Assembly (NCBI GenBank): GCA_051362555.1
Contig: CM120647.1
Location: 15,538,651 to 15,602,650 of the forward strand
Length of the DNA stretch: 64,000 bases
Origin: Lingula anatina
Lineage: Eukaryota > Animalia > Brachiopoda
Direction of reading: 5' to 3'
Shown: positions 2,821 to 64,000 of the stretch, piece by piece
How positions within the stretch are numbered: position 1 is the stretch's first letter
Layout: each line of letters begins with the position of its first letter
Notes under the pieces: generated by a model
What the model was told of the DNA's origin: nothing
Database searches by the model: none
The model's input: only the letters and a program-made list of their open reading frames with translations
Made by a program: the position numbers and the translations under genes

Positions 2821-3638
2821 ACACAGCCGGACAAGGTATAGCGCGTGCTACGTGCTCCTGCTGTGGCCAAATTTGTCATACCGACCATGGGACTTGCTAC
2901 TGCGTCGGAAAGCCCCCAAATTGCCGCTGTGGTGCCAGCGATTACACAAAATAAATGGTGCTGTGATCACATTGTTCATGCCAGTATTTTCACTAATATA
3001 TATTCAGACCAGCTTCTTGTTTAACATAAATATGTTGATAACTGTGCTTATCTGAGACTGATAAAACCTATTAGTAAATTCCACAAGTCAATTTGGTGAT
3101 ATTGTTGTTAGAGATTATTAGAAGGAATCAATGGCTCATTTAAACAAAGTTTACTGACTCCACAGAAAAGTTTTTTTTTTTTTTGATAACAAATTAAGTT
3201 TGCCCAAATGCATTAGTTTAAAGACCGAAATAGAAAACCGAGATAAACGTTTCTTGATTTTTTTTTTCAAGAAAGAAAGAGAGAGAGTAGAGAAAATGAG
3301 AGTGAGCTGGGACACAGAAAGCCATGGTGTGTGTGTGTGTGTGTGTGTGTGTGAGAGATTATATTATCTAATGCAACCACATTATGTTCATTCAAGTAAC
3401 TGAGTAGAACAAATGCATATTGAATAATATATGGTCAGTTTAATGCAACGGTTTATTATTTTACAGTTTAAAATTACATTTTTTGTTTTGTTTTCAGAAT
3501 AGCCACCCGTCGAAAGTAACCATGACCAGTTGGACATACGGAAGAAAACAGGAAATTAGTCCCTCAGCTAAATGTACAGCTGCTGTATTTGGACTTTTTT
3601 TGGGAATTTTGAATTCAAAAATAAGTTGCCATAATAAA
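2821..3638 (+). pseudogene. 8-Cys secreted peptide copy A (exon 2 at 2821-2954, terminal exon from 3498; TATA box and signal-peptide exon deleted at ~518)
   Basis: Exon 2 reads DTAGQGIARATCSCCGQICHTDHGTCYCVGKPPNCRCGASDYTK*. Alignment to copy B shows promoter sequence joined directly to intron 1 at ~518/519. AATAAA at 3633. Confidence 0.8.
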
Positions 3639-4155
3639 GTTTGTAGTAAATGGGCTGTATTTACTGCATCGTCAAAGCTCAGAATTTATTTTCTTTGTTG
3701 TTGTTAGAAATCGTTTGAATGCTTAGTACGTTTATTACACCGATGGGCAATGCACTTGAATTTAGAGGTCTATCATTTATTTCATTAACATGAATGAAAA
3801 AGTAACCTTACCAAGCTTTATTGAAATCAAAAGCACTAACTTAAGTTATAGTAACGATTAGTAATTTGCGCACAGGTTGGTCATATCAAAAAATAAAAAT
3901 AAAATAATTACAGTTATCACATTATATATCAAGAAATAATGCTAGGTGATAACTCTTTGAAAATGACATTACAAGAAACGAAAAAAATATACTATTGCAA
4001 ATTATATGTACGTGCTGTCGAACACTGGTAAAACGTTTGCAGATGTTTTCTTCTGGTTTTTTTCACATTCTCTCATTAATATAAAATCATATAAGTCAAA
4101 AGCAATACAAAGATAATGCCTTTTGTTTTCCTTGGTACAGGTACATATAACTTAC

Positions 4156-4300
4156 AGTTGGTGCATGTTTTCATGCACTTCCCAAGTGACGTTTTTGCTC
4201 CAATTCAACCACTGCACTGCTCTTGTGAGACACGTTTTCCGCGAAGTCTACAAGACCATGTCGCCACCTCTAGGCCGTACTGTCCACATCCCTTTGAACC
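4156..4300 (-). pseudogene. Remnant TSP1-like exon of the minus-strand TSP1-EGF gene
   Basis: Reads GSKGCGQYGLEVATWSCRLRGKRVSQEQCSG*IGAKTSLGKCMKTCTN, followed by a GTAAGT donor. Homologous blocks at ~11050-11200, 15465-15627 and 36135-36298. Confidence 0.55.
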
Positions 4301-4590
4301 GCCTTCACTTTATCCATTAAAAATTTGGTGCCCGTCTTCAATTTTGCCATATAAAGACATAAGAAGTCGTTCCGAATGTATTTGAGATACATCTGTGCTA
4401 AAAAGCCCGAAAGCTCCGTGGATTTGTGACTTTAAGAACAGTTTTTAAATCATAAACGTATGTATGTAGTTTGCTCTAATTTAAGGAACACCGAAAGATA
4501 TACACGTTGCCCCTTTTCAACGAGGCGTTCAATCTGAGCAGAAAATCAGCACATGTGCTGTTTGTTATAATTTATATAAATAGCAATGCA

Positions 4591-5553
4591 CAGACTTGAC
4601 TTTTAATGTGGGATATTTCAAAGATAAACCTAGATAAAAATGCATTATTTTTTTTTCCGAAAACACCCGTTCTCATATAAGATATGTGAATAGAGAGGCG
4701 CTACCAATTAATTGATTACTATGCCTGTTGCACTGCTGTATTATGTAATATCCAGTGGATATTGGATGGTGCTCCTTTGGGTAGGTCAAAACACCGCTTT
4801 GGCAAAGCATGGTTCTGTCAAAAAAATTATCCATATGTCGGCAACTACTATATAGAAGCTACAAGAGATTGGATTTGCAGTGCATAAAATGAGCTAAGCA
4901 GTGCTTTACAAAATTGTTGATCTGTAGCAGAATTTTGCGAAAAGGCAAACATTGGCAGACAGATTGTTGCTCCAAAAGGAACAGTCTGCACAGTTTAACA
5001 GAGTAATGTCCAGACTGGTGTACCTACACAGAGGCTACGGCCAATTTATCAAAATCTTACCAGAAGGATACAGGAACCACTGTCTTTCGGGATATGCTGC
5101 TGCAAATAAACAAATAGCACCCAGTCCGTTCATGAGGGGTAAATTGCCACCAAAACGCGTTTTTCAAGGACGATAGTGGACACTAAATTGCTTTTAACAG
5201 GTTACTGGTTTTAACAAGTTAGAATACCAGGCGACCTCCGAGGAACCCACTGTGAACAGTAAAACACCGTCGTCTGTTTCTCTAATGAATTGGAGCCCAT
5301 GGCCGTTTCTGGGTAGAACACTGAAACCACGTACGAGGCTTATTTTACTGAGGTCAGATTTCACCTGAACTACTCAACTAGCCAGAAGAAGCTTACGACG
5401 AAGCTTGTGCCGCGTCTAAAGTGACAAAAGTCGTTGACAGCATCAGTATATGGAGTGGATACCATATTGGTGCCAAAACACCAATGGTAGTCATCGGCGA
5501 AAACCTGAACTAGATCAAATAAAGGAATAATCTGGGAACCACTTGACTATCAT
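4591..5553 (+). mobile_element. 3'-truncated copy of the Tc1/mariner element at 629-2288
   Basis: Starts with a degenerate left TIR (CAGACTTGACTTTTAATGTGGGATATTT) and is colinear with 629-1630; no right end. Confidence 0.8.
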
Positions 5554-6340
5554 TGTCACCACTTTCCCACAACCCTCACAACCGCTCACAACTTTGTGCA
5601 TGTAACAGCTATAGCGTGTCCATAAAGCAGCATCTAATAGATGCTTCCATGTGTTTCAAAACGAGTGTCTTTACACCGACCTGTATTTAATGCTACATAA
5701 ACAAACCAATTAAAAATACACGATAATTACCCTTCTGCACGACGCTTGGAAACTGAATTAACACACGCAATGGCCGTTAAACCTTATTTTTTTATATTAG
5801 GAAACTAATTTTACTGGAAATATCAGAACTTTTCCATAAATCCCAGACTTTTTATCATGTTTTGTAAATAGAATCAGGCAATATAATATTTTTAAGTTGA
5901 AAACGGGTTCATAAATTATGAAGTCCCGTTGGTGATCGTTTTAAGGCATATCTGCTGAAATTACCACCGAGTTTAATCTTGAGTTTTATAATTGTTAAAC
6001 ATGCGCCACTTGTCTTTGACATTTAGAAACTTAATTGTTTACATACCACCCCAGATGCGGAGCACAATAATGTAACGAGGACAGATGGTTAGCACCTCTA
6101 GCGGGCGTTAATTAACTGTTTATAAACATAATAAATAGACTAATTTCCATGCAATTTGTAATTTTCTTTATCATGTACGTGGTAGATTTATTTACTAGAA
6201 AGTGACATCTTCCTCGCCAATCAACAGTAAATGTTTTAGAATAAATCTACAACAACAACAACAAAGGGTTGACTTTATTTTCGAATTTGTTCCGTGTGTA
6301 TTCAAAATAGAAGAAAGCAAGTACACTTAAAAAAGAAGTG

Positions 6341-6343
<3 letters not shown>

Positions 6344-6381
<38 letters not shown>
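6344..6381. repeat. (GT)n microsatellite
   Basis: Direct inspection. Confidence 0.95.
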
Positions 6382-6382
<1 letters not shown>

Positions 6383-7105: not shown

Positions 7106-7269
7106 TTTGACAAATGATAATGGTTTTGTTGCATAACACCGTGTACAAATGATTGAGGAAAAGTTGGAAACAGAAAATACCTTCCTGGGTCCATATTTCA
7201 TGACAATTTTATTCTGTGTTTCCTTAATGAAGATTGATAGGGATTTGCTTGCACTGAAACGTATAAATA
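7106..7269 (+). promoter_or_regulatory. Proximal promoter of peptide gene B: conserved ~100-bp module plus TATA box (TATAAATA 7262-7269)
   Basis: The same module and TATA box lie ~80-90 bp before the ATG in copies D, E, F and G. The module contains TTGCATAA (C/EBP-like). Confidence 0.7.
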
Positions 7270-7340
7270 GCGGCTTGGGTTGCACATCTCATCGTAGAGA
7301 ACTGATCCAGTCTCCTGCTACGACAACTTCCATTGGAACG

Positions 7341-9088
7341 ATGAAGTCGTGCGCTCTTCTTGTGCTCTTTTTGCTCTTTGTTGCTGTTGTCATAGAAGGT
7401 GAGAGACACAAAGTATTTAATTAAAAGTATTTAATAATGACTTGAAGTGTAAAATCTGAAGCGAAGAAAAGGGGTACGTCAGAACTGAGATCGTAATCTA
7501 GGCAGACGTTATCTCCGCTAGGGGGAAATTTAAATGTTACATTAGTATGTCCTAATTTGACCAAAAGAGTTCGTGATCAAAATCACACCCAATAAGATAT
7601 ACATAAATTACAGCATCCAACTAAATAAAGTGCAGTGTTCAGTAATTTAAATTAGCAGATAGGCAGTTGTGAGTGCTTACTGACAGTGGTATTTTGCATC
7701 CCTTTGAAACACAAAGTGAAACGTTTAATTCTGCCTTAATTTGTATTTCCATAAATTATCTTGACACTGTCAAGATAGAAAATAGCTCAATATATATGCA
7801 AAACCATTTTAGTATCTTCTATAAGGAATGTCTGTTCTTTTTTTTTTCACTTTCAAAAATAAGCTAAAACAGCCAAAAAGATTATTTGTCACTACCGACA
7901 AATACCGGTAAGAAATTGAATGGAATGGAGACCAGAAAAATGTATTTGTAGTTCACAAAGGCATGGATAGTGCCACGCATTACCCACTCCTAAGCAAATT
8001 TGGAAAGAACGCAAATTTTAAGTTCCACTATGTTGCTTTCCTTCATTAACATTTGAATTGAGAAATTACGCTTAAAATAAATGCATATGGACTTTCAGTA
8101 ACACTTTTATATTTTGCATTTTTTATTTTGATATTAGACACAGCCGGACAAGGTATAGCGCGTGCTACATGCACCTGCTGTGGCCAGATATGTCATACCG
8201 ACAGTGGGACTTGCAGGTGCGGCGGAGTTGCACCCAACTGCTACTGTATTGCAATTGATTACACAACAAGGTAAACGGTGTTGTGATGAAATTGTTCATA
8301 GCAGTATTTTCACAAATACATTTTTAGACCAGATACTTGTTACACTTGAAAATATGTTGATTTTTAGTAACTTCAGCAAGTCAATTTGGTAATAATATTG
8401 TGAGAAATTATGAGAATGAATTAATGGCTGATAAAAGCACCACCACATATAACCTTTTTAATAACTAATACATTTTGCCCAAAGTTAGTAGTTTATAGAC
8501 CAAAAAAGAACAAGATACACGGTCTTTTAAATCATTTAGAGAGAGAGAGAAATTGCGGGAGGGATGGGGAGTGCTGTATGTTATATACTCTGATACTCAT
8601 ATGTGGTGTTTATCTCCTTTCACTTTTGTGAATTTATCTAATGCAAACTATTGGTTTCATTAATGTGCATTCAAATAAGTATATAGAAAAAATTGGTTTC
8701 AAACTAATGTGCATTCAAATAAGTATATAGAAAAAATGAATATCGTGTTGTAAATAATCAGTTAGAGATCATCCCCAGAGGCTATCGTACTAACTTTGGA
8801 TCAACCTATCAACTTAGGTGGCTTAGGTGTCTCACATGCCCACTGGAGCTGTTAGAGGGTAATTTACTATCGTTTAGCGGCTTCAGTAGGCGTGCCAGAC
8901 ATAAGTCGTTTAAGCTAAGCGCAATTCAGCGACAAAACCCTTGGAGATGGATCGATCCGGTTAGATTGATCTAGGCATGGGAACCCAGTCTTCAATACAA
9001 TGTTCATTATATAGCGGTATACATTAAAGTTTTTTTTTTTTTTGTTGTTGTTGTTTTCAGAGGACCCCCTTCTCCAGCGACTCCATAA
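7341..9088 (+). CDS. 8-Cys secreted peptide precursor, copy B (exon 1 7341-7398; exon 2 8138-8274 if its stop is used, or spliced at 8270 to exon 3 9061-9088)
   Basis: MKSCALLVLFLLFVAVVIE|DTAGQGIARATCTCCGQICHTDSGTCRCGGVAPNCYCIAIDYTTR(* or GPPSPATP*). Canonical GT-AG phase-1 intron, TATA upstream, AATAAA downstream, conserved across paralogs. Confidence 0.85.
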
Positions 9089-9975
9089 CCAGTGAAAATA
9101 CGGAAGAAAACAGGAAACTTCTCACTCAGCTAAATGTAAAGCTGCTGTATTATACTTTTTTTTGTGAATTTTGAGTTCAACAATAAATGGTCATAATAAA
9201 GAATGTAGTAAATACGCTGTATTTACTGCATTGTCAAAGCTCTAATTTTACTGCCTTTGTCGTTGTTGGAAATCGATTGAATGCTTAATATGTGTATTAA
9301 GCCAATGGGTCATTAGCATTAATATTAGAGGCTCTATCATTTATTTCGTAAAAATGGATGAAAAAGTAAATTCATCAAGTTCGCTTTATTAAAACGGAAT
9401 GCATATATATTACCCTCAGATGTAGTTATGGTGGGGCAATTTTGTGCACAGGTTAGTCATATCAAATTTTTTGGGGCCATTGTTTTGATATTTATTAAAA
9501 ATGTATTTATGTATCATTAAAACAATGGCTACTGGCTCCGCAGAAAAAAAAATAAAAACATTTTTTTTCATAACAATTACCGTTTGCCGAAAGGCATAAG
9601 TTTAATGACCAAAGCTAAAAAGAGTGAGCCATGGTGTGCATGCGTGCGTGTGTTCGAGTGATAAATAAATAATTAGCCTACGATACACTTACTTAATGAA
9701 ATTATAATCGCAAATATTTGCTAGGACCAAAAGATGTGAAGTATTTTCGATGACATTTTTTAAAACAATTTGTGTTACTGAAATAAGGGAGATATCTTGC
9801 TTATATAAGTGACATAAGATATCACCCGGAATTCTGACAAAACTATAATGATAATATTAAAAAATATGAAGCATATTTATCATATTTAGTAGTCTGATTC
9901 TTCATATATACGTGCATATTTATTTTTATCTGTGTTCTTGCTTCTGCATTAAATTTGATAAACTGATTCACATAC

Positions 9976-13139: not shown

Positions 13140-13854
13140 ACACAGCCGGGCAAATTGCATTGCGTGCTTCATGCACCTGCTGTGGTCACAGGCGTAGCAG
13201 CGACCATGGGAGTTGCAGGTGCGGCGGAGTTGCACCCAACTGCTACTGTATTGCAATTGATCACACAACAAGGTAAAAAAGGTGTTGTGATGAGATTGTT
13301 CATAGCAGTATTTTCACAAATACATTTTTAGACCAGATACTTGTTACACATAAAAAAAAATGTTGATTTTTGTCCGAACCTTAGACTGCTAGCCGATTTG
13401 CAAATTCTGGAAGTCATTTTTTTATATCGTTGTGAGAAATCATGGGAGTGAATTAACAGATTATAAAAAACGCCACCACATAAAACTTTTTTTAAAAACA
13501 AATACAGCTTGCCCAAAGTTAATTTTAGATACGAGATGAACGGTTTTGTAAATTTTTTGAGAGAGTGGAAGAGAGAGGGAGAAAGAGAGTCGGGGTAGGG
13601 AGGGCGGGCGGTTGAAGGAGAATTAGAACCAGGTTGTACGTGTGTATGTTATATTATACTCTGATTGTAATATGTGGCGTTTATTTCCATTCACTTTTGT
13701 GATATAATCTAATGAAAGCTACACAATGTGCAATCAAATAAGTACATAAAAAATGGATATCGTTTTGAAAATGGCCAGCCTAATGCAATGGTTCATTGCT
13801 TAACAGTATATAATAATATGTTTTGTTTGCAGAGGACCCCTTTCTCGAGGTTAA
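13140..13854 (+). pseudogene. 8-Cys peptide copy C (exon 2 13140-13276, exon 3 from 13833; TATA, exon 1 and most of intron 1 deleted at ~13106; Cys4 changed to Arg)
   Basis: DTAGQIALRASCTCCGHRRSSDHGSCRCGGVAPNCYCIAIDHTTR*. The promoter module is fused directly to the exon-2 acceptor region. Confidence 0.8.
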
Positions 13855-14757
13855 GCAGGACCAGTTGAACATACGGAAGAAAACAGGAAACTATTCTATT
13901 AGCTAAATAAAAAGCTGCTGTATTTGGACTTTTTTTTAGTGAATTTTGAGTTCAACAATAAGTGGTCATAATAAAGATTGTAGTAAATATGCGGAATTAC
14001 TACTTTATCAAAGCTCCAATTTTACCACTTTTGTCGTTGTTGGAAATCGTTTGAATGATAATACGTATATTAAACCAATGGACAATGCACTAAAATTTAG
14101 AGGCCCTAGTTTTATTTCATAAACATAATTGAAAAAAGTAAATATGTCATTTTTGCTGTGTAAGAATCAAATGCATTTACTTCAGTTATAGTTAAGGTGG
14201 TTCAATTTTGTGGGCATGTTAGTCTTATCAAAAATGAATCAATACATGGCCTGCGATAAACTTCCATTATGAAATTCTAGTTGCCAATATTCACTAGGAC
14301 AGAAGGATGTTAATTATTTTCGATCAAAATCCGTTAACAACTTGTAATACTTAAATTAATGATAAATCTTGCTAAACAGAAAACTCGCCAAAGCATTTCG
14401 AGTACCAAAATTTTCCAAAATGCAGATATTTAATTTAATACAGAATTTTTTATCATTTGTTAAATTGTTGGCATATAAATACTGACTACAGTAATATTCC
14501 TTGCATTCTTATCTTCTTCTTTAATGTGATGTCCAAACAAATTAAACTCTATTAACCCAAGTGTCTCGTGATTGAAGACCAAAAGGTAAAAGGGAAAATA
14601 ATTTTGTCAAAAACATTTCATTTTTTTTTTAGAAATTCAACTCAATTTACTTAGGAAAATTCTACTTTGTTGCAATAACACACCGAAAATATGACAGGTT
14701 GCAAGGTTTTGGGCTATAGCCATCCGGGGATTTGCAGTAGTCGTCAAACAAGGTAGT

Positions 14758-39388: not shown

Positions 39389-39391
<3 letters not shown>

Positions 39392-39434
<43 letters not shown>

Positions 39435-46613: not shown

Positions 46614-46618
46614 ATCTA

Positions 46619-48764: not shown

Positions 48765-48784
48765 GTGTTAACGGTGGCTGTAAC

Positions 48785-49105
48785 ATGAAAGCTGAGACCA
48801 GGAAGATATTTAACGTTCATGTAAAGTTGCTTTCATCAGCTGACAAGAAATTGATAAAAGCTGTCATAGAGAATTCTCCCTACGACCTCGTTCGAATCTT
48901 ATGTAATTACGCTGCTAATTTACTGTACAACAAGCATATTAAACTGAACTCGAAGGACAAATTGTTGTTACGCCGAAATAGGTACACCATCCTTCAACTG
49001 GCTGATAAGAGAGTCTCCATACAAAGAAAGAAAAGGCTTTTGTTACGAAACATTTCTGCTGTTAAAGCAATATTAAACCCTGCATCAAAACATGTCAGTC
49101 TTTAA
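48785..49105 (+). CDS. Conserved basic Polinton protein (106 aa), probable virion core component
   Basis: DLVRILCNYAANLL…LADKRVSIQRKKRLL matches the recalled pattern of the small basic ORF that follows the ATPase in animal Mavericks. ATG at 48785. Confidence 0.65.
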   Translation: MKAETRKIFNVHVKLLSSADKKLIKAVIENSPYDLVRILCNYAANLLYNKHIKLNSKDKLLLRRNRYTILQLADKRVSIQRKKRLLLRNISAVKAILNPASKHVSL

Positions 49106-49779: not shown

Positions 49780-49845
49780 AAGAAAACATTACAATAAGGC
49801 ATATTGTTACAATATAATTACTTTATTTTAGTTGAATAAATGTGT

Positions 49846-50373
49846 TCAGTACATAATTCGAAGTGATTTCTTTGATCGACACGCTTGGAAACTCGTATTT
49901 ACAATGCAGGGTATGGTAAAATTTGTATTTACATAATCATACACCAATATATCGTTGAATTGCTTATCGTTAGTAAAACTTCTTAGAATCTGATCTAATT
50001 TCTTCCCGCGAGAACGGTTCATTACGTAATATATACAGTACTGTCCACACACTTTGGTATACTCGCTCTGTAATGTTCTGGTGTTAAATGTCCAGGCAGA
50101 TCTAGAGTTTTTGTCTAAAAAACGTTTAAAAGCGTCATTATAATAATACGGAGCACTGCCGTAGGAGTCAAAAAATTCCCCACTTCCGTTTTCATCAAAG
50201 TAAAAGGCGACCCAATGTTGTCCGGGCTTGTAATGTGGATCTGTATTACAAATAAAACAGGCGGGAAAATGCTGTATTTTTTCTGGCAACGTGTCCGATG
50301 CAAACACTCCCTGAAAACGAGTACTTGTACTTGCGTCAGCCTTAAGAATATACTCAATCTGTCTGGTATTCAT
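49846..50373 (-). CDS. Adenain-like cysteine maturation protease
   Basis: PGQHWVAF, FFDSYG and LQS…VCGQYC catalytic motifs. Confidence 0.93.
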   Translation of the reverse strand: MNTRQIEYILKADASTSTRFQGVFASDTLPEKIQHFPACFICNTDPHYKPGQHWVAFYFDENGSGEFFDSYGSAPYYYNDAFKRFLDKNSRSAWTFNTRTLQSEYTKVCGQYCIYYVMNRSRGKKLDQILRSFTNDKQFNDILVYDYVNTNFTIPCIVNTSFQACRSKKSLRIMY

Positions 50374-50375
50374 TT

Positions 50376-51683
50376 TCAATATTCGACGTAAACGCTGCGG
50401 CGTTGATCTATCTTAATGACAGAATCGAATTCTGCCATTACAATTAATACACTATTTGAAACAGCCTTCCCAAACTCCATGGAAATATTAAGGCTCCCTT
50501 GTTTAGTTGGTGTCACGTAATTTTCAAAACTTTTATCTGATGTCAGGTCAAAGCCAAACAGGGTGTACCCGTACAAGTAGTCCATTCTATCAAAACCCAC
50601 ATTTTCTTCTCCGGTTGCTGCACCAACGGATTTTAATAGGTCGAAGTAAGGCCTAATGCAACCAAAGCCTCCGTTTACGTTAAAATCTAGATTGTAAGGT
50701 TTAAAAGGTATTTGCTCCCCTGCCACCGTTAAGCGTAGCTGTCTCAAATCATTGTTTTTAAAATTAAACGGGTTTTTTTCATAATCGCCGCTAAAAGCAT
50801 CATCGTCAACAAGTCCAAGGACAATGCGTTTCGGCATTTTTCCGATGAAATCATTGTCTAAATTTACATTTCTGTTTCCATTTGGAAAATTGATGACTTT
50901 TAATTCTCTTCGAGCCATGGGATAACACGCCACATGTTTGGTTAAAATACTCTCGTGGGCCAACTTAAGCCTATCAGACACCTTGACTCTCCTTACAAAT
51001 AGAGATATGTTATTGATAAAAAACTTCTCGTCTTTTTCCTGTGTTTCCGACATCAAACAAAATGCCTGCGGTGTTCTCCTCAATTTTATTCGCATGTCTA
51101 TGTTATTTAGGAGTAGTTTATCTTGGTTTGCCAAATCGAATTTCAGTCGTCCGTACATCTCCACGCTTCTACTGCGTTGAAACCATCGGTAGCGATCTGA
51201 CAGTCCATCATTTCCGGGGTCACCGTCGACATCTGTAGCGTTCATTTGTCCTGGCGTGTCTTGGTACCACATCTCACTCCTCATCCACGTTTCTTTAGCA
51301 TTTTTCCCATAATACAATAAATTTTCTAGATATGCTCGATAGGGATAGGTGTTTTGACTCAGGGTTATCAAATGATCGTTCAGCTCTATGTCCACGGATG
51401 AGAATAACGAGTGAAGCGTGTTGTTCACGACGCATGTATTTTGACCAATATTGATATCACTTCCGTCTGCCTTCACGACTTTTCCATCCACGAACAGGTT
51501 TATATGAGACGGATCAATATATTCGTCGGGCGTGCCTTTGATGACAAATTCGACGACTTGGGATTCCTGATTTATAAAAGTAACCGGTCTTACTTCTTCG
51601 ACCGAGTCTGCTAAAATATCTGACTGGTAATTTCTAAAATTCGTGAATAAATCCAGTTCTGTCTTCACGATTGGGTCACCCAT
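50376..51683 (-). CDS. Major capsid protein (double jelly-roll), 435 aa
   Basis: KTELDLF, NNTLHSLFSSVDIELND, YPYRAYLENLL, MPKRIVLGLV, NPFNF and GYTLFGFDLT motifs of the Maverick MCP. Confidence 0.88.
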   Translation of the reverse strand: MGDPIVKTELDLFTNFRNYQSDILADSVEEVRPVTFINQESQVVEFVIKGTPDEYIDPSHINLFVDGKVVKADGSDINIGQNTCVVNNTLHSLFSSVDIELNDHLITLSQNTYPYRAYLENLLYYGKNAKETWMRSEMWYQDTPGQMNATDVDGDPGNDGLSDRYRWFQRSRSVEMYGRLKFDLANQDKLLLNNIDMRIKLRRTPQAFCLMSETQEKDEKFFINNISLFVRRVKVSDRLKLAHESILTKHVACYPMARRELKVINFPNGNRNVNLDNDFIGKMPKRIVLGLVDDDAFSGDYEKNPFNFKNNDLRQLRLTVAGEQIPFKPYNLDFNVNGGFGCIRPYFDLLKSVGAATGEENVGFDRMDYLYGYTLFGFDLTSDKSFENYVTPTKQGSLNISMEFGKAVSNSVLIVMAEFDSVIKIDQRRSVYVEY

Positions 51684-51685
51684 GT

Positions 51686-52051
51686 CTAAAAGTTTGTATT
51701 TCGTGTCTTTGTTGGACGCGTCCGCTTTGTCTTCTTTACTTTAGTGCTTCTGGTCACTTTAGGTGTGCTATGTTTTTTTATAGCCATAGAGTTTAAAGCT
51801 TTCCTCACGACGTCACCGTTAACATACAATTTAGCCTTTGATGCAGGTCTCTTAATAGCTTTTCTTTTTACAACAGATCGTTGTGTATTCTTTGGACTGG
51901 TAGACCTTTTTACTTGGAGTATTTCACCGTGTCGGGATGGAATTAATCTACTCCCCCCTCTCTGAGTTCGTGAACCATGGAATTTGTTAATAGAACTCCC
52001 ACCTGCCTGTGCCTCGTATCTTTTCAATAGTGCTACGTAAACCGGATCCAT
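51686..52051 (-). CDS. Small Lys/Arg-rich putative DNA-condensing core protein with QxGG protease sites
   Basis: QAGG and QRGG near the N-terminus, highly basic tail, located between the two capsid genes. Confidence 0.7.
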   Translation of the reverse strand: MDPVYVALLKRYEAQAGGSSINKFHGSRTQRGGSRLIPSRHGEILQVKRSTSPKNTQRSVVKRKAIKRPASKAKLYVNGDVVRKALNSMAIKKHSTPKVTRSTKVKKTKRTRPTKTRNTNF

Positions 52052-52053
52052 GG

Positions 52054-52785
52054 TTACAGTAAACTTTTTCGACGAAAATGAAGTGTCGCAATAGCCTTCC
52101 CGCTATCAAAATGCACAAGTTCACCAGTGTCACAACTTATATCTATTCGAATAGTATCGATCTCACGCCGATTCAAAGGGATGTAAATAGGCGAATCAAA
52201 TGTCTTTGTTACAACTTCGTCCTGTCTACCATTGATGCCTACGATCCTCAGTAAATTTGCAGACGCGTCTCCCACCAACTGGTTTTGTATGATATCAGCG
52301 TATACGTAGAGAGCATTTAAACCTAGCGTCATGTTTGGGGGGTGAGGGGCTATAGTGTCCGATGTAACCCGAGTATCCTTTAACCAACCTAACATTTTTC
52401 CGATATCGTCGGTAAAATTAATACTCGCACCTGAACGTAAATGAACCGTCACTCTTCTTAAAGTGATATTATAGCCGAGTGTCACGTTCGACTGACCCAG
52501 TTTAATCATGCCGTCATGGATCGCCGTTATAAGATCGTTTACCGTAGGATAATATCCTCCTTGAACGAGTAAAGTTTGTGTTCCGTGGCCGTCGAAATAA
52601 GTTATGGAACTGTCTTTTAAATTTTTCCACGTTTTCGGATATTGCAGCTCGACTAATGCGACTTCGTAGTCACCATCTAAACGCAAAGTCGATGACAATT
52701 TTGTTTGAAATGACTCAGGTCTATTGTTAGGAAAATACTTGAAGCTGCTGTTGGAAGGTAAGATAACATGAAAAGACGACGCCAT
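52054..52785 (-). CDS. Minor capsid (penton, single jelly-roll) protein
   Basis: FHVILPSNSS…YEVALVELQYP…LYVYADII…VGD…LLRIV…TLHFRR. ATG at 52785. Confidence 0.88.
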   Translation of the reverse strand: MASSFHVILPSNSSFKYFPNNRPESFQTKLSSTLRLDGDYEVALVELQYPKTWKNLKDSSITYFDGHGTQTLLVQGGYYPTVNDLITAIHDGMIKLGQSNVTLGYNITLRRVTVHLRSGASINFTDDIGKMLGWLKDTRVTSDTIAPHPPNMTLGLNALYVYADIIQNQLVGDASANLLRIVGINGRQDEVVTKTFDSPIYIPLNRREIDTIRIDISCDTGELVHFDSGKAIATLHFRRKSLL

Positions 52786-52822
52786 CGTTTCAAATGATGC
52801 TGTGGACAAAGTGAAAAATCAC

Positions 52823-53902
52823 TTATACTTTTTTCAAATCCGCTGCTCTCACCCAGCTGTTAAATTCCTGTGAGTATCCTTCCCATTTCACAAGAATCTG
52901 TTTGGATTTACCCTTGCCTCTAGATTTAATTATTTTCTCAATACGATACACGTCGTCTGTTTTTAAAACTTTAATCATTTCAGGCTCGTACATAACACCT
53001 GCTATTTGTTCCCCATTGTAATCCATCACTTTGTAAACGGGGGGTGTTCTATCAATACGTCGTGTTATGGTAAACAATTCCTGTGTCCAACCCCGTTCAT
53101 ATCCTTTGGCAAAAGGGGACCTGTACGTACTCAACCTCACAGTATCACCAACTTTGAATTTAAACTTTATCTTTCTTTTTTCTTGTCTATGTAAGTTATT
53201 CCATACGATATCGGCATTTCCAGGGTTTACATCGACAGGACGCATTTTTATACTACGATGTACTGCATGATTATAACCATTCATCAATTTGGCTAAAACT
53301 GTCACATACGTTAATGTGTTATTAGCTGTGAAGTATCTATACATTTTCGATTTAAAAGTTCGATTCCATCTCTCTATTACTGACGATTTTCTTTCACTTT
53401 TTGTATTGAAAAAATGAATTTTTTGTTCTCTGAGAAAAGCTTGAAATTTCCTATTGGTAAACTCTGTTCCAGCATCCGTTTGAAGCGTATTAGGTTTTCT
53501 TCCTTCGCCTAAAACTTTCTTAAATGCCCTCAAAACGCTTTCCGTACTCTTTGACTTCATAGGAACTGCCCAAGCATATTTAGAAAACACATCTATGACG
53601 GTCAAAATGAATTTCATTCCTTTGTTGTATTTTGATAATTTGCTTAAATCGACTAAATCTGCCTGCCATTGGTCATCAATGTAACTGACAACGACACGGT
53701 TTGTTTTAAAATGTTTTCTCGCAGGGGCATGCAATGTGTAAGTATCTTGGTTGGATAAAAAATCTCTTATTTGATCGATACCAATATTCTTGTTGTCTTT
53801 TTTAACCGCACGGTACAGTTTTGAAACGCCGCCGTAGCTGGCTGGATTGTTCGCATCGTAATATATTTCGTTTAGGTACGTTTTTGTCTTTTCGTTTTTC
53901 AT
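52823..53902 (-). CDS. int: Retroviral-like DDE integrase with C-terminal chromodomain
   Basis: WQADLVD, IDVFSKY, LQTDAGTEF, IERWNRTFK; chromodomain YRIEKII…LVKWEGYSQEFNSWV. Confidence 0.95.
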   Translation of the reverse strand: MKNEKTKTYLNEIYYDANNPASYGGVSKLYRAVKKDNKNIGIDQIRDFLSNQDTYTLHAPARKHFKTNRVVVSYIDDQWQADLVDLSKLSKYNKGMKFILTVIDVFSKYAWAVPMKSKSTESVLRAFKKVLGEGRKPNTLQTDAGTEFTNRKFQAFLREQKIHFFNTKSERKSSVIERWNRTFKSKMYRYFTANNTLTYVTVLAKLMNGYNHAVHRSIKMRPVDVNPGNADIVWNNLHRQEKRKIKFKFKVGDTVRLSTYRSPFAKGYERGWTQELFTITRRIDRTPPVYKVMDYNGEQIAGVMYEPEMIKVLKTDDVYRIEKIIKSRGKGKSKQILVKWEGYSQEFNSWVRAADLKKV

Positions 53903-53907
53903 CCTGG

Positions 53908-54135
53908 TTACAAAGAGGATTTACGTGACTGATTCTTTTTATTCACACAGCAAAGCAGGTTTTTTATGTGCTTCCAAAGTTTCGACAATGCATTAGATGG
54001 CGACGCTTTTTCTGGAGCAATGATTCCATCCGCTTGGTCAGATTTTACAGTAACATCAGCTTTTCCGTGACAACACACAATAAGAAATCTTATATCTCCA
54101 CATTCGAGTCCAGCAGATGGACCTACACCAGCCAT
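53908..54135 (-). CDS. Small Maverick hypothetical protein (75 aa)
   Basis: ATG-initiated and exactly fills the gap between the IAP and integrase genes in the same orientation; amphipathic segment ALSKLWKHIKNLLCC. Confidence 0.5.
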   Translation of the reverse strand: MAGVGPSAGLECGDIRFLIVCCHGKADVTVKSDQADGIIAPEKASPSNALSKLWKHIKNLLCCVNKKNQSRKSSL

Positions 54136-54193
54136 TATATCTTAACTCTTTGCATGCACAACGTTAAATGGTTTAAAAACAAATAAACGGCTT

Positions 54194-54673
54194 TTAAAAT
54201 AGAGAATAGTACTTCGGCGCTGGCGGCCATGGCTCTGCTTCGGTAAGGCTGTGGAGCAGCGTCTTAACGGTACTGGGAACGCGCACAGAAGTCGATTTAT
54301 TACTGGATACGACAAAGAGATTAACAAACTCTTTGCGTTTTTCGGGTGTTAGTGGAACATTGAAACGATTCTTTAATCTCCCCTCTACAGAATTCATGGT
54401 GCAGTGAGGGTTGTGTCTCTCGTGCTCGGGGTCTACCGCGTCTCTCAACGGATCCCAATTTTTCAGGCTTAAACGACAATAAAAACACTTGACGGTATCG
54501 TCAGTGAATGCAGTGTCAGGGTCCCTGTAAAACCCACCGATAGCTAATGGAATAGGATTGATGAGAACTTTACCCGGCCAGTTGATGAAGCTTAATATTC
54601 TTTGTTCTTCATTTGCAAAGGGTACTAGGTAATCTACGTGATCACCGTCTACAGAAACGTCGTAATCATCCAT
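54194..54673 (-). CDS. Single-BIR-domain inhibitor-of-apoptosis-like protein
   Basis: RILSFINWP…LAIGGFY…DTVKCFYCRLSLKNWDP…EHERHNPHC (CxxC-H-C BIR signature); TATA-like GATATAAAAG ~55 bp upstream. Confidence 0.88.
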   Translation of the reverse strand: MDDYDVSVDGDHVDYLVPFANEEQRILSFINWPGKVLINPIPLAIGGFYRDPDTAFTDDTVKCFYCRLSLKNWDPLRDAVDPEHERHNPHCTMNSVEGRLKNRFNVPLTPEKRKEFVNLFVVSSNKSTSVRVPSTVKTLLHSLTEAEPWPPAPKYYSLF

Positions 54674-55099
54674 TCTCACTTGTGCGTTAGATCGGTTGAA
54701 AATGACTATCTTTGTTTCACTTTCTCGCTTTTATATCAAAGTCTCAGTTGTATATTAAATTAAAAAGTTGACCAATCAATTTCTATTACGTGTAAAATCA
54801 CATAAACAACAAACGCATCATTTCTACCTAATTTTTTTTTTTATTTATTCACTTTTTTTTCAAACACAATACACATCTAGCCAAACAGCAATACAAGTAC
54901 TTAATAGCAAAATACTCTTTGTTGTCATCCATACATTTACAGCTCTGTACAAGGAGTAAAGCAAAATGAAATCAAATTCACAGCAGTGCAGTTACTCTAT
55001 AATAGCACTCTATTGTCATCGTCCACGTGTTTACAGTTCCGCACAATCAAATATGTATACAATGGCCAACAAAAATACACGCGTGCAGCTACCTTGTAT

Positions 55100-55966
55100 T
55101 CACAATTCGGCGCAAACAATGTCATAGACGTCATAGACGGCTCTTTCAATCTCCGACTTAAACTCGGCGTCATGATCGAAATTTTCAACCTCGTCTCGAA
55201 TGTCTTCCATAAGTTCTACAGACATAATGATGGAGTATATGTAGGGGTTTGCGGATTCGTTCAACCTTCGCTTGACTTTTCTGTAGGCGTCCATCACAAC
55301 CTTGGGTGAAATTATGTTTTTAGCTTTTTCGAAGTACGCACACACTCCGTACGTCCAATCAGCCATGCACCCCTCAAAATGCTGTTTCTGGGAGCCATGA
55401 TCTATGATGCAGCCATGACAATACTTTCGAAGCAGATCAAAAATTTTTCGCACAATGAAATTAATCATGATAAGCTTAACAACAGTTATGTCATACTGTA
55501 CATTTTCAGCGTCTTGTTCTTTAGCCATTTGTTTCTTCTTCTTCTTATCCTCTCTCATCGGTGAAGGGGAACGCGTCCTCTTCGTCATTTTCTTATCCAT
55601 GTCCAAAGCGTCATCTATATTTGACGTATTGGACAACAGAGATTCCCAACTGAGTTTGTCGAATGCTATGTCATACAAAGCATCACTGGCGGATGTGTAG
55701 GTCAACACCACGCGATAATCATTGATGAACCCGTCAAAGTTCACATTTACCGCATATCTATCGCCGAAGCTCACATCTTGTCGTCTACTCGCAGTAATCG
55801 CCTCTTCTATTCGTGGAATTTCTTCTTTAAACTTTCCCCAGGCGTCCAATGACATGCGTATCTTGCTTCTAGAAGTGGGATCACTAAAGACCACCAAATC
55901 GTTACCTTGTAAGTTTTTGCAAACTGTTATAAGTTTGCCACCTTGTAACTTTATAAAAGTTGCCAT
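55100..55966 (-). CDS. Putative tandem PC4-like ssDNA-binding protein with C-terminal Cys/His motif (288 aa from ATG)
   Basis: IRMSLDAWGKFKEEIPRIEEAI and IAFDKLSWESLLSNTSNIDDAL resemble the PC4 C-terminal helix; basic NLS-like stretch; CHGCIIDHGSQKQHFEGC. Confidence 0.65.
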   Translation of the reverse strand: MATFIKLQGGKLITVCKNLQGNDLVVFSDPTSRSKIRMSLDAWGKFKEEIPRIEEAITASRRQDVSFGDRYAVNVNFDGFINDYRVVLTYTSASDALYDIAFDKLSWESLLSNTSNIDDALDMDKKMTKRTRSPSPMREDKKKKKQMAKEQDAENVQYDITVVKLIMINFIVRKIFDLLRKYCHGCIIDHGSQKQHFEGCMADWTYGVCAYFEKAKNIISPKVVMDAYRKVKRRLNESANPYIYSIIMSVELMEDIRDEVENFDHDAEFKSEIERAVYDVYDIVCAEL

Positions 55967-56084
55967 TTTATCAGATTTCACAACTTTCAGCTGCGAGTGA
56001 AGCTCTCTCAAACAACGCAACCTTAAATACTCTCTTCTTTGCGCACCAGACAGCAATCATTCGTACGCTAAGACAATACGATCA

Positions 56085-56275
56085 ACAGACTGATCTGTAG
56101 CATTGCTACGTGAGACAATGCAATAAACAAATTGAGGCATAGGATTGCCACGAGAAACAGACTGATCTGTAGCATTGCTACGTGAGACAATGCAATAAAC
56201 AAATTGAGGCATCGGATTGCCACGAGAAACAGACTGATCCGTAGCATTGCTACGTGCGACATTACAATAAACAAC
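56085..56275. repeat. 72-bp tandem repeat (~2.7 units) in the right subterminal region of the Maverick
   Basis: Units start at 56085, 56157 and 56229; each contains the palindrome GTAGCA-T-TGCTAC. Confidence 0.92.
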
Positions 56276-56361
56276 TTTCGCCATAGGGCGGTCAGTACCA
56301 TAACACTCTACGTGCCAGCCATCATTGTTCGTTCTCTTTTAATAAGACGCGTGACCTTTGT

Positions 56362-56725
56362 ACCCCAATTGTTCGTGGCATTCCACTCTCCATTGTCACC
56401 GGCTATTTACATCCCTCAACCTTAGTGCAGATGCACTAAGGCTGCTATAAAAGAGTTTGATTTTTAATTTTAAAACTGTTGCTATGGTTTCATCATAGTT
56501 TGCGCCCAAAGTGGTTGCTATGTTGTTGTTGCAATTGTTTCTAAACAGTTTGCGCCCAAAATGGTTGCTATGTTGTTGTTGCTATGGTTTCTAAACAGTT
56601 TGCGCCCAAAATGGTTGCTATGTTGTTATTGCTAGGGTTTCTAAACAGTTTGCGCCCAAAATGGTTGCTATGTTGCTGTTGCTATGGTTTCAAAACAGTT
56701 TGGGCCCAAGTGCACCTTCACTACT
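56362..56725 (-). repeat. Right TIR of the Maverick
   Basis: Reverse complement of 41080-41443. Confidence 0.95.
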
Positions 56726-58545: not shown

Positions 58546-60169
58546 GACTTTGGAAGACGTTTTGACAAATGATAATTGGTTTATTGCGTAACGCTGTTAA
58601 TAAATGATTAAGGAAACTGAAAATACCTTACTGGGACCATATTTCATTTTAATTCACTCTGTATGTTTCTTTGTTTTAAAGTTTAAGTAAACGAAATTGT
58701 AGGCACATATAACAAGGCAGGAAATAAGCAAAATAACAAATTCTTGCCTTTTGCAGCGATATTTGATGTGTGCTAAATTCAGTTTCATGTGCAGGTTTCC
58801 AAAAGCAGTGACTCTTCTAGATGTCTGTAAAAGACAAACCCAACGACTGTGTCTGTTTTTTTTTTTTTTTTTTTATGAAGTGCAGGGGATGAAATGCATA
58901 ATCAGAAAAACAACAGAAACATAAGAAAGAAACCTGATAACGTTCACGTTATTCAGTGTTAAGATCAATTTTCTACAGTATGTGCAGCGTTTTGTTAAAT
59001 AAAGTTGCTTTGACAAATGGTGATGATTTTATTGCGTAACGCTGTATATAAATGGTTAAGGAAATGTTTGAAACAAAAATATCTTGCTGGGACCATATTT
59101 CATCGTGGTTTGTATTATATCCTTATTTTACATCACTGCCGACTACTATTTGAAAAAAAAGCTGTTTAAATCCGATCTTTAGGAGAGTAGAAGACCAATA
59201 GATTCATAAATGAGTACATGAGCTGTTGCTGATATCAATAGTTCAAAATGAAAACTCCAGTAAATTACATATTATTTGAAGATATAGGCATATATCATCA
59301 GGCAGAAAATTAGCAATAGGACATATGCATGTCTTTGTTTGATATTTGGTGTGTATCAAATGCAGCGCCATGTACAATAATCAAATGCAAATAATCTTCT
59401 AGCTTTCTAAATGACAAAATGCTGAAACTTGGTCTGGCCTTTAATAAGATAAGAAAAGAAATATAGAGAATAAAAATTATTGAAAAAATTAAAAAGTAAT
59501 AAAAAAATAATAAAAAAACTAAAGAATAAAAAAATAGAGAGAAAACGAAATGTCGCCTAAACCTTTTGACCAACATTTCATTTATTTCAGTTTTAGATAT
59601 TTAGTTGGCACTCAAACATTCAACAAATGATTTTAAGACGGTAGGTGTTTTGCATTAAGGTAAATATTTAGTGAGCTGCAGGAGCTACTTTTCAAATTTC
59701 TAAATTGTTTACTTTATAGTTAGTTTTTAGAGAGAAAGATTGCTTTCATCAAACGAGTAAACTTTTTTGAATATTAATTGAAAAAAAAAACAAATATTGT
59801 AGTGACTCTTGTCTTGTCGTCGATTAAGATAAAACCATAATTCCAAAGTAATTTGTGTTAAAAACTAAAGAAAGAGAAAAAGAATAAAAAAAGGGGTGCA
59901 CGTGTGCTGTTGGAAGACGCTTTGATAAATGATAATGATTCCATTGCATAACACTGTCTATTAATGATTGAGGAAATTTTTGAAACAGGAAATATCTTAT
60001 TGGGACCATATTTCATGGCGATAATATTTTGTGTGTTTCCTTGCAGAAGATTGCATGGCCTTTGTTCCAATAGAATCGCTTAAATGGCGGCTTGGGTTGC
60101 GTAAGTCTCTTAGTGGATAACTTATTTCAGAGATTTCAATATTTTGCTAGGACTGCTTCATTGGAGAAA

Positions 60170-60793
60170 ATGAAGTCGTGCGCCGTTCTTGTGCTTTTGG
60201 TGCTGTTTGCCACTGTTGCCATAGAAGGTAAGTGATACTTCCATAATAACATGCATTATGTATGGGCAACGCATTGGTCTGTAAGCTTGTAGTGAAGTTA
60301 TTAACTTGACATACCCGGTTTTCAAAAAAATACTTATTGAAAAACCTGACAAACCCAGCCGTTTTTCTCCTTCAAGCAAAATGGTGCATTCTCATGCCAC
60401 CCTCATCCCCCCCCCCCCCTACACACAGCTGTAAAGAATGGTAAAGAATCTTGATCACGAACATGTAGATGGGGTTCGGAAAGGGGCATCAGCCGTTTCG
60501 GGAATAACTAGGATCATTATTAAGTGAAGATTGAAAGAACCTGGATTTTATTTCCATTGTGCTACTTCACAAATATTTGAATCTAGAACTTTCACGAAAA
60601 TTAATATTCCAATGGTCTTTCGGTAACATGTTTATCTTTATATTTTTTATTTTATGTAGACTCAGCCGGGCAAAGTACACCGTTTGTGACGTGCGACTGC
60701 TGTGGTCATATTTGTGGAAGCGTTCATGGGAGATGCTACTGCGTCGGAAAATACCCCAACTGCCGCTGTGGTGCAATCGATCACCCAAAATAA
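60170..60793 (+). CDS. 8-Cys secreted peptide precursor, copy H (exon 1 60170-60227; exon 2 60660-60793; 3' UTR exon from 63666), 63 aa
   Basis: MKSCAVLVLLVLFATVAIE|DSAGQSTPFVTCDCCGHICGSVHGRCYCVGKYPNCRCGAIDHPK*. GTAAGT donor, AATAAA at 63789, TATA box degenerate. Confidence 0.85.
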
Positions 60794-60938
60794 AAGGTGC
60801 TGTGATGACATTGCTCAAGGCAGTTTTTTCAATAATACATATTCTGACCAGCTATCTGTATACAAAAAGTTGTTGAATACTGTGCTAATTTGAGACTGCT
60901 AAACTTATAAGTCAATTCTACAAGTCAATTTGGTGGTA

Positions 60939-63106
60939 CCTGTGTAACATGAAAATCTGACCCCCATGAAAATCTGACACCCCCAGTCAGATTTTCATAA
61001 TTTTTCTTTTTGAGTATAGAACTGTGATCTTGTAGTATGTAAAATGAAGGATACAGTGCACTTTTTTGTAGTTTGCAGGTGAAAATTTTCATGAAAAAAT
61101 AAGAAAATTAAAAATGTGCACACAATGAAAATCTGGTTCCCCCTCCACAAAACTTCATAAATCTTATTTTATTTTGAGTATATGACTGTGATCTTGTAGT
61201 ATGTAAAATGGAGGATACATTGGCACTTTTTTTTTTTTTGTAGTTTGCAGGTGAAAATCTTCATGAAAAAATAAAATTAAAAATGTGCACATAATGGAAA
61301 TCTGACTCCCCCATGAAAATTTGACTCCCCCTCCACAAATATTCCTAAATTTTAATTTATTTTGAGTATATGACTGTGATCTTGTAGTATGTAAAATGGA
61401 GGATACATTGGCACTTTTTTGTAGTTTGCAGGTGAAAATTTTCATGAAAAAATAAGAAAATTAAAAATGTGCACTTAACCGCCCATTGTCTCCCCTATGA
61501 AAAAGCTATCTATTTAACATTTGATGATCATTTCAACACCTTTTCTTAACTTTTACTATATGAAGATTATATTGGAAATATTTAAAAGTTTGATAGTAAA
61601 ATATTGGGTGAAAAAGAAAAAAAAAAACATGAAAAATAAGAAAATTAAAAATGTGCATTTTATCACCCAATAACTCCCCATTGAAAAAGCTATCTATTTA
61701 ATATTTGATGATCATTTCAACACCTTTCCTTTTAGGATACTTTATGAAAAATATATTGCAAATATTTTAAAGTTTGATGATAAAATTGTGAGTGAAAGAA
61801 TGAAAAAGAAATCATGAAAATCTTCATTTCTATACCCTCGAGATTTGGACTCCCATGAAGAAAAGGACCTATTTTATATTCAGTCAACATACCATTGCTT
61901 TCCACATAGTTTGCATAGAGATGAATATTTTGTTTTTATTTGAAAGTTTGATGGTGAAAATTTTGGTGAATATTTTTAAAACAAGTATCCATCTTACTTC
62001 CTGTAGGTTTTGCACTCTGTAAAAACGCTACATTTTTTACTCAAGAAATTGGCCCATCGCCTTTTTATTTAATTCTTCTTATATAGCATACGCAACTAAA
62101 CACTTGCTGTTGTTTTCCCATTATTTTCCCCAAAGCTGAATGAAAAATGGGGATTAATTAAGCAAAGAGGATAATAAGTATGCATTCTTGCGGCCATAGG
62201 ACTTTGACGACCCAACTTACAAATCAATTGTTTATATTTAATATTTGAATATTTTTTCTTTTAAGCTACGACATATGAATAAGCTACCACCAAGCATGTC
62301 ACATCCCTATCACATTTGAAAGTTTGGTGGTGAAAACCTTTGTCAAAATTGAGAATGTTTTCAAAAGGCATTCATCTTACTACCTGTAGGATTTGGATTG
62401 ACATTTTCTACATTTCTTTTTTTCGCATTAGATAATTTCAGTGCTCAAGGTCCTACCTGTGGCACTTGGTTAATTGCAATTAGGTAGCTGCCAGGGCTGT
62501 GAGATGTTTGGTAGTAGCCTTGTGATCTCAAGTTGATTGCAATAAAGCAATGACCACAGGCATTCCAGTGCTCCAGGCCTTACCTGTGGTACTTGGTAAA
62601 TTGCAATTAGGGGGAGTCAAATTTTCGTGGGGGAGTCAGATTTTCATTGTGTGCACATTTTTAATTTTCTTATTTTTTCATGAAAATTTTCAGCTGCAAA
62701 CTACAAAAAAGTGCCAATGTATCCTCCATTTTACATACTACAAGATCACAGTCATATACTCAAATAAAATGAGATTTAGGCATTTTTGTTGGAAGGAGTC
62801 AAATGTTCACGGGGGAGTCAGATTTTCATTATGTGCACATTTTTAATTTTCTTATTTTTTCATGAAAATTTACACCTGCAAACTATAAAAAAAGTGCCAA
62901 TGTATCCTCCATTATGCATACTACAAGATCATAGTAATTTACTCAAATAAAATTAGATTAATGAATGTTTTTTGAGGGGGAGTCAAATTTTCATGGGGGG
63001 AGTCACATTTTCATTATGAAAATCTTTCATGGGAGTCAGATTTTCATAATGAAAAGCTGACTGGGGAGTCATATTTTAGGGGAGTCAGATTTTCATGGTA
63101 CATCTG
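60939..63106. mobile_element. Foldback-type non-autonomous DNA transposon in intron 2 of copy H
   Basis: TA on both sides; ~500-bp inverted arms (60939-61475 / 62609-63106) built from ~170-190-bp subrepeats and CATGAAAATCTGACTCCCC motifs; no coding capacity. Confidence 0.85.
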
Positions 63107-63326
63107 TATTGTTGTGAGAAATTGTGAGAGTGATAATGGCTCATAAAAACAAGGGATACTAGCACCATAGAAAAATTTTTAAACTAACAAATACAGTTTG
63201 CTCAAAGTTATCAATTGATGAACAAGATGAACGGTCTTTTCAATTTTTTTAGAAAGGGAAAGAGAGAGAAAGAGAAAGACATGGTGTCTGTTCGTGCATG
63301 TGTCAGTGCGTGTGGGTTTGTTTGTT

Positions 63327-63358
<32 letters not shown>

Positions 63359-63568
63359 TGTGTAGGTAAGGGGAGGTGGGAGGAGAAGGAGAGAACCAGG
63401 TTGTGTGTGCGCATGTCATATACTCCGATTGTCGATACTCCGATTCTTTTTGATATAATCTAATGCAACCTTTGTGATGTGCATTCAAATAAGCAAATTC
63501 AAAAAAATCCATCTGTATTCTAAATGGTCAGTTTAATGCAGCGGTTTATTATTTTTCAGTTTATACTT

Positions 63569-63571
<3 letters not shown>

Positions 63572-63657
<86 letters not shown>
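63572..63657. repeat. (TA)n microsatellite just upstream of the exon-3 acceptor of copy H
   Basis: Direct inspection. Confidence 0.95.
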
Positions 63658-63660
<3 letters not shown>

Positions 63661-64000
63661 TTCAGAATAGTCTCCAGTCGAGAGGAAGCATGACCAGTTG
63701 GAAAATAGGAAACTTGTTACTCAGCTAAATGTAAAGCTGCTGCATTTGGATTTTTTTGTGAATTTTGTGTTCAACAATAAGTGGTCATAATAAAAATTGT
63801 ATTAAAATACGCTGTATTTACTGTATAGTAAACGTTTTAAACATTTGTTGTTGTTGGAAATGGTATGAATGCTTTCTACGCCTCTGCTAGCGTATAAAAA
63901 AAAAAATAATAGAAAAAAAATTGGAATACCAATGTTTCTTGACCAATGTAGATCATTCCACATGGAATACGGTTCTGCCAAAGCACATAAAGTATCAATT

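Follow-up and report, generated by a model that had tools for sequence, protein, structure and literature searches.

What is encoded by the repeated cysteine-rich exons of a 64,000-nucleotide stretch of the Lingula anatina genome (GCA_051362555.1, contig CM120647.1, positions 15,538,651 to 15,602,650 of the forward strand; hereafter the window), and what might the products do? A sequence-only reading of this DNA had claimed eight exon-2 paralogs of a hidden family of secreted 8-cysteine peptides. A six-frame scan of the 64-kb window located all eight, each on the + strand. The family is real, and its gene models need correction. We propose, at roughly even odds, that these tandem three-exon genes encode putative host-defence peptides that bind foreign targets via variable loops, probably reshuffled by recombination.

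The inter-cysteine spacing is 1,0,3,6,1,6,1 (C-1-CC-3-C-6-C-1-C-6-C-1-C) in 7/8 copies; the frame that had been described as invariant thus holds outside copy 3, which has 7 Cys rather than 8. The 8-Cys pattern finds seven matches in the window and none in 100 shuffles of it. The copies are carried by units of about 5–9 kb with promoter, intron and 3' sequence in common, and are organized as follows.

Copy 1, 2821..3638, + strand: exon 2 from 2821 (first Cys at 2853), stop at 2952–2954, exon 3 from 3498, AATAAA at 3633; a deletion with its junction at 518/519 has removed the TATA box and exon 1.
Copy 2, intact, 7262..9200, + strand: TATA box at 7262, exon 1 coding 7341–7398, exon 2 8138–8270 (first Cys at 8170), exon 3 from 9061 with a coding tail, AATAAA at 9182 and 9195.
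Copy 3, broken, 13140..13975, + strand: exon 2 13140–13272 (7 Cys, the first at 13172), exon 3 from 13833; deletion has taken the TATA box, exon 1 and the larger part of intron 1.
Copy 4, intact, 18149..19848, + strand: TATA box at 18149, exon 1 coding 18228–18285, exon 2 19031–19163 (first Cys at 19063), exon 3 from 19707, AATAAA at 19843.
Copy 5, intact, 23857..25574, + strand: TATA box at 23857, exon 1 coding 23936–23993, exon 2 24739–24871 (first Cys at 24771), exon 3 from 25415, AATAAA at 25569.
Copy 6, probably broken, 33123..34738, + strand: TATA box at 33123, exon 1 coding 33202–33259 without a GT donor, exon 2 33994–34126 with 8 Cys (the first at 34026), exon 3 from 34597.
Copy 7, intact and divergent, 37925..39827, + strand: TATA box at 37925, exon 1 coding 38013–38070, exon 2 from 38981 (first Cys at 39010), stop at 39109–39111, exon 3 from 39694, AATAAA at 39822.
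Copy 8, intact coding sequence, 60080..63794, + strand: degenerate TATA box at 60080, exon 1 coding 60170–60227, exon 2 from 60660 (first Cys at 60692), stop at 60791–60793, exon 3 from 63666, AATAAA at 63789; intron 2 enlarged, with nested inverted and tandem repeats at 60948–63093.

Five of the eight copies (2, 4, 5, 7 and 8) are intact and three are broken. The TATA box and signal exon ascribed to every copy are present in six, with a canonical TATAAATAG in five copies and a degenerate version in copy 8; the 58-nt coding exon 1 specifies a 19-residue hydrophobic leader and ends in phase 1. Alignment with the copy-2 unit shows that deletions of ~320 and ~930 nt removed both elements from copies 1 and 3, and the signal exon of copy 6 has no donor. 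The third exon, taken earlier for a polyA exon, has that role in copies 1, 7 and 8, where the stop lies in exon 2. It is also coding in copies 2–6, in which the donor lies just 5' of the genomic stop, so that exon 3 adds 6–8 coded residues.

The exon-1 deletions of copies 1 and 3 (518/519 and ~13094–13106) have a near-identical upstream start (copy-2 equivalent 7163–7165) and different ends, and the common start suggests a fragile site. The orphan second exons of the same copies (2821 and 13140) retain intact acceptors and open frames and, judged by their sequence, could be used as alternative exons given read-through from an upstream exon 1. A decayed, frameshifted duplicate of the copy-7 exon-2 start is found at 38777–38850, within intron 1. 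In the 5' untranslated region (UTR) of copy 2 (7296–7340; likewise in copies 4–6), an AG is followed by a frame that stays open into the start codon.

Of nine RNA runs under the species label, four (X1, X3, X4 and X7) were compared with 23600–25100, which spans exons 1 and 2 of copy 5. Run X7 yielded 625 reads from 11 million records, almost wholly within two exons, with read starts near 23899, 42 nt past the TATA box. The proposed phase-1 intron is confirmed by 218 X7 reads with a gap of exactly 745 nt bounded by GT..AG, corresponding to the predicted intron 1. A further departure from the genome occurs at the exon-2 donor in 54 reads, which, together with a RefSeq model sharing the last nine residues of copy 2, back the coding tail of exon 3. 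No exon reads were found in X1, X3 or X4 (the 3 reads of X1 and the 7 of X3 fall elsewhere; X4 gave no read at all and is no test). Expression of the family is strong but restricted, with reads in one of the four runs. None of the 625 X7 reads is at least 99% alike to copy 5. At 23976 each of the 511 reads has a letter other than that of copies 2, 4 and 5, and the read letters at 24788–24791 match none of the eight copies. Their source may be other paralogs, or a divergent population that bears this species label. The joining of exon 1 to exon 2, for which RNA mapping had been suggested as a check, is thus observed in spliced transcripts of the family, and not in reads from the eight loci of the window.

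A profile search of 1.84 billion proteins returned five matches, two of which are true relatives, both uncharacterized Lingula anatina RefSeq models: LOC106168921 (XP_013403637.1) and LOC106168922 (XP_013403638.1). Both belong to the same family. The other three (a sushi-like repeat protein, a repetitive bacterial-like protein and a Symbiodinium protein) were rejected as matching repeats by chance. Copy 2 has 98% identity with the second half of XP_013403637.1, which matches exactly its translated 5' UTR and exon-3 tail, and the window is on this ground Lingula anatina or a form very close to it. For that model, neither the first half nor, for its relative, XP_013403638.1 as a whole has an identical counterpart in the window. 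Describing the family as hidden was therefore too strong, since two models exist, one fused (XP_013403637.1 joins two precursors through the 5' UTR) and one N-terminally extended (XP_013403638.1 begins upstream of the TATA box). The fused two-peptide model was not adopted, as no joint into the 5' UTR is listed among the X7 reads. The last loop of XP_013403638.1 is only two residues long, and the presumed invariance of the P-N loop consequently does not extend to the whole family.

A window-alignment sequence search gave no match at 24–79 residues and LOC106168921 as the sole match among 182 longer candidates, and the LOC106168922 query returned only itself and LOC106168921. In Pfam, which often misses short Cys-rich peptides, no match was found up to E 10 except D_CNTX (E 0.6) in one of the eight copies, and P0001 gave six sub-threshold matches only. 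The PDB sequences contained none for the profile and copy 8, and noise at E 1.8–1.9 for copies 7 and 2. A search of the ESM Atlas with P0001 98–150 returned no feature match and template-modelling (TM) scores all <0.5, and none of 393 pattern matches in metagenome contigs was confirmed. A likeness of the spacing to laminin-EGF and antistasin was backed by no search and was set aside. The picture of a secreted, Cys-rich, birth-and-death family without a characterised relative is supported by these sequence, profile, Pfam and PDB searches.

A literature search, with most subscription journals and the main Lingula immunity paper outside its scope, found no description of the family or of its accession terms. 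The 390-peptide lophotrochozoan antimicrobial library of PMC10414684, as searched, contains no Lingula entry and no CCG motif; the family peptide motifs were not found in the PMC4595640 supplement, and PMC7203481, PMC11891777 and preprint 10.1101/2023.02.02.526830 hold, in the portions consulted, nothing specific to the family. The string C-CC-C-C-C-C-C occurs in PMC4494067, PMC7551347 and PMC8004829 as part of longer frameworks. The kind is familiar, a secreted Cys-rich multigene family, and this particular family appears undescribed. The family may extend beyond Lingula, because the searched collections hold few unannotated small animal genes.

The precursors are 62–72 residues long, with a hydrophobic leader (mean hydropathy 3.1–3.6) followed by an invariant G-Q. 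They would enter the secretory pathway, where the signal is predicted to be removed after residue 23, past (T/S)-(A/S)-G, exposing an N-terminal Gln that may become pyroglutamate; this is consistent with the rule of small residues at -3 and -1 of signal cleavage sites. The predicted mature peptides comprise 39–49 residues with 8 Cys, none before the core, and have computed net charges of +0.8 to +3.9 and 1–3 His each. The exon-3 tails of copies 4–6, which contain paired basic residues, may be trimmed at those residues, and the peptides would be released into body fluid or mucus. The histidines and the CxCC and CxC motifs could also suit shell-matrix or metal-binding peptides in which Cys and His act as ligands instead of forming disulfides. 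We regard this as very improbable, given that the signal peptide implies an oxidising pathway and that a search of the PMC13425148 supplement, where Lingula shell-matrix proteins are listed by RefSeq identifier, found neither accession, although proteomics of that type can miss small disulfide-rich peptides.

AlphaFold predicted one and the same four-stranded, helix-free pattern with copy 2 (8 rows) and with copy 8 (9 rows) as lead sequence, at a mean predicted local distance difference test (pLDDT) of 72–73, a core pLDDT of 74–84 and a predicted TM score (pTM) of 0.30–0.39. The peptide would accordingly be modelled as four strands in two hairpins, a granulin-like stack with four predicted disulfides. 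For neither model did Foldseek return a match with an E of 0.001 or below, and VIA-align found none of Z ≥2 for the first, longer model. The trimmed model matched 2 of 48,161 chains: the C-terminal domain of alphaD-conotoxin VxXXB (7TXF; Z 2.6, root mean square deviation 2.1, 28/30 aligned) and the granulin-like fragment of rice oryzain beta (1FWO; Z 2.4, root mean square deviation 2.0–2.1, 32/35 residues). Two stacked hairpins of granulin-like type are therefore, on these weak model-based matches, a lead rather than a result, and imply no function. The VxXXB domain has the mini-granulin fold, which is common to granulin A, antistasin and EGF-like domains (PMC10133702). This fold consists of two stacked hairpins with two parallel disulfides across the sandwich, and AlphaFold, which can misassign disulfides, mispaired those of TxVIIB (PMC11035057).

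The Lingula peptides resemble the mini-granulin peptides (7TXF, 1FWO) in the predicted four strands and two hairpins, and differ in cysteine number and spacing, with no sequence similarity detected; the comparison is one of predicted fold alone. The granulin module builds a ladder of six disulfides from 12 Cys, and its half-module has 6 Cys (PMC11035057), whereas the Lingula peptides have 8 Cys and one CC pair. alphaD-conotoxin is an 11 kDa homodimer with a Cys-linked N-terminal domain (PMC10133702) and blocks nicotinic receptors allosterically; its N-terminal dimer domain has no counterpart in the Lingula peptides, whose predicted mature forms span 39–49 residues without a Cys ahead of the core.

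The VxXXB match raises the idea of anti-predator or deterrent peptides acting on animal ion channels or receptors, convergent with mini-granulin conotoxins, and a conserved signal ahead of a variable mature exon would agree with it. We consider this improbable, if less so than a shell or metal role. The top match is weak and tied with the plant granulin fragment, and no toxin-family sequence similarity was found beyond D_CNTX (E 0.6 in one of eight copies). Lingula is moreover eaten by people, and brachiopods are filter feeders with no known venom apparatus.

Known defence peptides provide further comparisons. The mussel CS-alpha-beta peptides (defensins, mytilins and myticins) share with the family a signal, 8 Cys, C-terminal extensions in some members and a variable multigene organization, and their disulfides (mytilin, myticin, MGD) are C1-C5, C2-C6, C3-C7 and C4-C8 (PMC7168163). 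By contrast, the Lingula peptides have no predicted helix, a CC near the N-terminus, a lower charge, a short non-acidic tail and no match to a defensin profile in Pfam, where short Cys-rich peptides often escape. The helix-on-two-strands arrangement is absent from both predicted models, and the earlier hint of a CS-alpha-beta defensin is replaced by weak granulin-like matches only. Four brachiopod peptides, all big defensins and none from Lingula, are listed among the 390 lophotrochozoan antimicrobial peptides of PMC10414684. These rhynchonelliform entries come from the same phylum and are Cys-rich defence candidates, but by eye they have 78–87 residues, a hydrophobic N-terminal part and 6 Cys of unrelated spacing, which the family does not share. 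Neither does it resemble hepcidin: the Lingula peptides lack a prodomain and have one CC pair, while hepcidin has a prodomain with a furin site and three CC pairs.

Copies 4 and 5 share 97% identity over 4.3 kb and specify the same exon-2 peptide; from sequence comparison, copy 5 arose by recent duplication of copy 4. Among the intact copies that are distant from one another, the nonsynonymous divergence (dN) of the core is 0.30–0.46, as against 0.05–0.16 in the signal, and in seven intact pairs involving copy 7 or 8 the core value is 3–9 times that of the signal. The synonymous divergence (dS) of the core is also high, 0.24–0.72.

Divergence is unevenly distributed along exon 2. The C5–C8 segment (33 nt) shows 0/33 differences in all 10 pairs among copies 2–6, whereas C1–C5 differs at 11–12 of 45 positions (up to 27%) between the groups 2/4/5 and 3/6, and intron 1 of copy 6 is 27–29% divergent from 2/4/5. 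Intron 1 of copy 1 differs by 6–7% from 2/4/5 and by 45% from copy 8; in C5–C8 this relation is reversed, with 13/33 differences from 2/4/5 and 5/33 from copy 8. In a mosaic test in which 10 triplets were examined, copy 1 is copy-2-like up to 2885 (140/147 informative sites), then mixed and copy-8-like from 2886 (36/62), with a maximum chi-square of 75.8 and a permutation p of 0.0005. Its stop position and exon-3 start are common to copies 7 and 8. The break lies between C4 and C5, inside exon 2, where the first predicted hairpin gives way to the second. Neither the loss of synonymous differences nor the change of nearest relative would be expected from selection alone, and recombination or gene conversion therefore appears to swap exon-2 halves, or hairpins, between copies. 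The mosaic copies could also be assembly chimeras. The repertoire also varies by source, since the window contains no identical copy of the X7 variants, of XP_013403638.1 or of the XP_013403637.1 first half.

That the last hairpin appears to be exchanged as a unit would also suit secreted protease inhibitors, in which the variable C6–C7 loop would be a reactive site against proteases of microbes, parasites or the host. In this hairpin, C-x-C-x6-C-x-C, the residue ahead of P-N varies and is basic or hydrophobic, and leech antistasins are counted among granulin-fold proteins (PMC10133702). This explanation seems unlikely, though somewhat less so than the deterrent one. No inhibitor family was matched in the Pfam or PDB sequence searches, and the two-residue last loop of XP_013403638.1 also speaks against it. 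The Bowman-Birk ring has nine residues, with the consensus C-T-P1-S-x-P-x-x-C; that of the Lingula peptides has eight, with no Thr or Ser at those places.

Slightly more credit, while still unlikely, is given to endogenous granulin-like signals, for wound repair or pedicle regeneration, or to reproductive recognition peptides. The predicted granulin-like fold and the restricted expression, in one of four runs, are compatible with such roles, and granulins are growth and wound-healing factors (PMC10133702). Against this, there is no sequence or Pfam match to granulin and the cysteines number 8 rather than 12. Fast gene turnover and mosaicism would be unusual for the ligand of one host receptor; in gamete proteins they would not be.

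An arms race is the best fit to the rapid turnover, the loops that vary on fixed cysteines, the differing repertoires and the strong, restricted expression, and host defence by target binding is preferred for this reason. The low charge suggests that the peptides would act by binding one defined target, microbial or parasitic, and not by lysing membranes. The mussel defence peptides, which bear signals, 8 Cys and C-terminal extensions, have net charges of +7 to +10 in Trichomya mytilins and 0 to +11 in Perna mytilins (PMC7168163); the charge of the family is below the former and within the range of the latter.

Several observations weigh against host defence. The charge is low for a lytic peptide, and toxins and reproductive proteins show the same combination of duplication and a variable mature region. 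The fold evidence is weak (pLDDT 72, pTM 0.30–0.39, Z 2.4–2.6 for one model and no match for the other), and a granulin-like fold does not point to defence, since it is also found in toxins, growth factors and protease inhibitors (PMC10133702). The suggested dN/dS check on exon 2 did not reveal positive selection by pairwise counts: dN exceeds dS in just 3 of 10 intact pairs, all of copy 8 with 2, 4 or 5, which are not independent. Finally, the reads establish the exon structure for the family through X7 variants absent from the window, and not for these loci.

A more far-reaching form of the host-defence proposal, which we hold only tentatively, is that the genes encode defence peptides specific to brachiopods and built on a so far undescribed granulin-like scaffold of four disulfides, with hairpins exchanged as modules between paralogs, through recombination within a single exon, to give each animal or population a combinatorial repertoire. 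The family offers candidates of 39–49 residues, fit for synthesis and testing, whose cysteine spacing is unmatched in the searched libraries, and the apparent half-exon exchange is a concrete, testable route to diversity. The errors in the public gene models are of a kind that would conceal the family from peptide screens.

One large element interrupts the cluster.

Polinton/Maverick insertion, 41080..56725, no strand assigned: between copies 7 and 8, outside the peptide family.

It has 364-nt terminal inverted repeats (99%), AGTAGT ends and a 6-bp target duplication. Its open reading frames match DNA polymerase B, split across two frames near 42773, an A32 ATPase, an integrase with a chromo domain and a BIR (apoptosis inhibitor) domain; a match to an adenoviral-type protease is below the cut-off. 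Between copies 5 and 6, fragments of non-LTR retrotransposon-like open reading frames lie on the - strand at 25882–27615 and 31476–31991, with no Pfam match above the cut-off. Between the Polinton and copy 8, at 57795–57896, a piece of the promoter and 5' region is present in inverted orientation.

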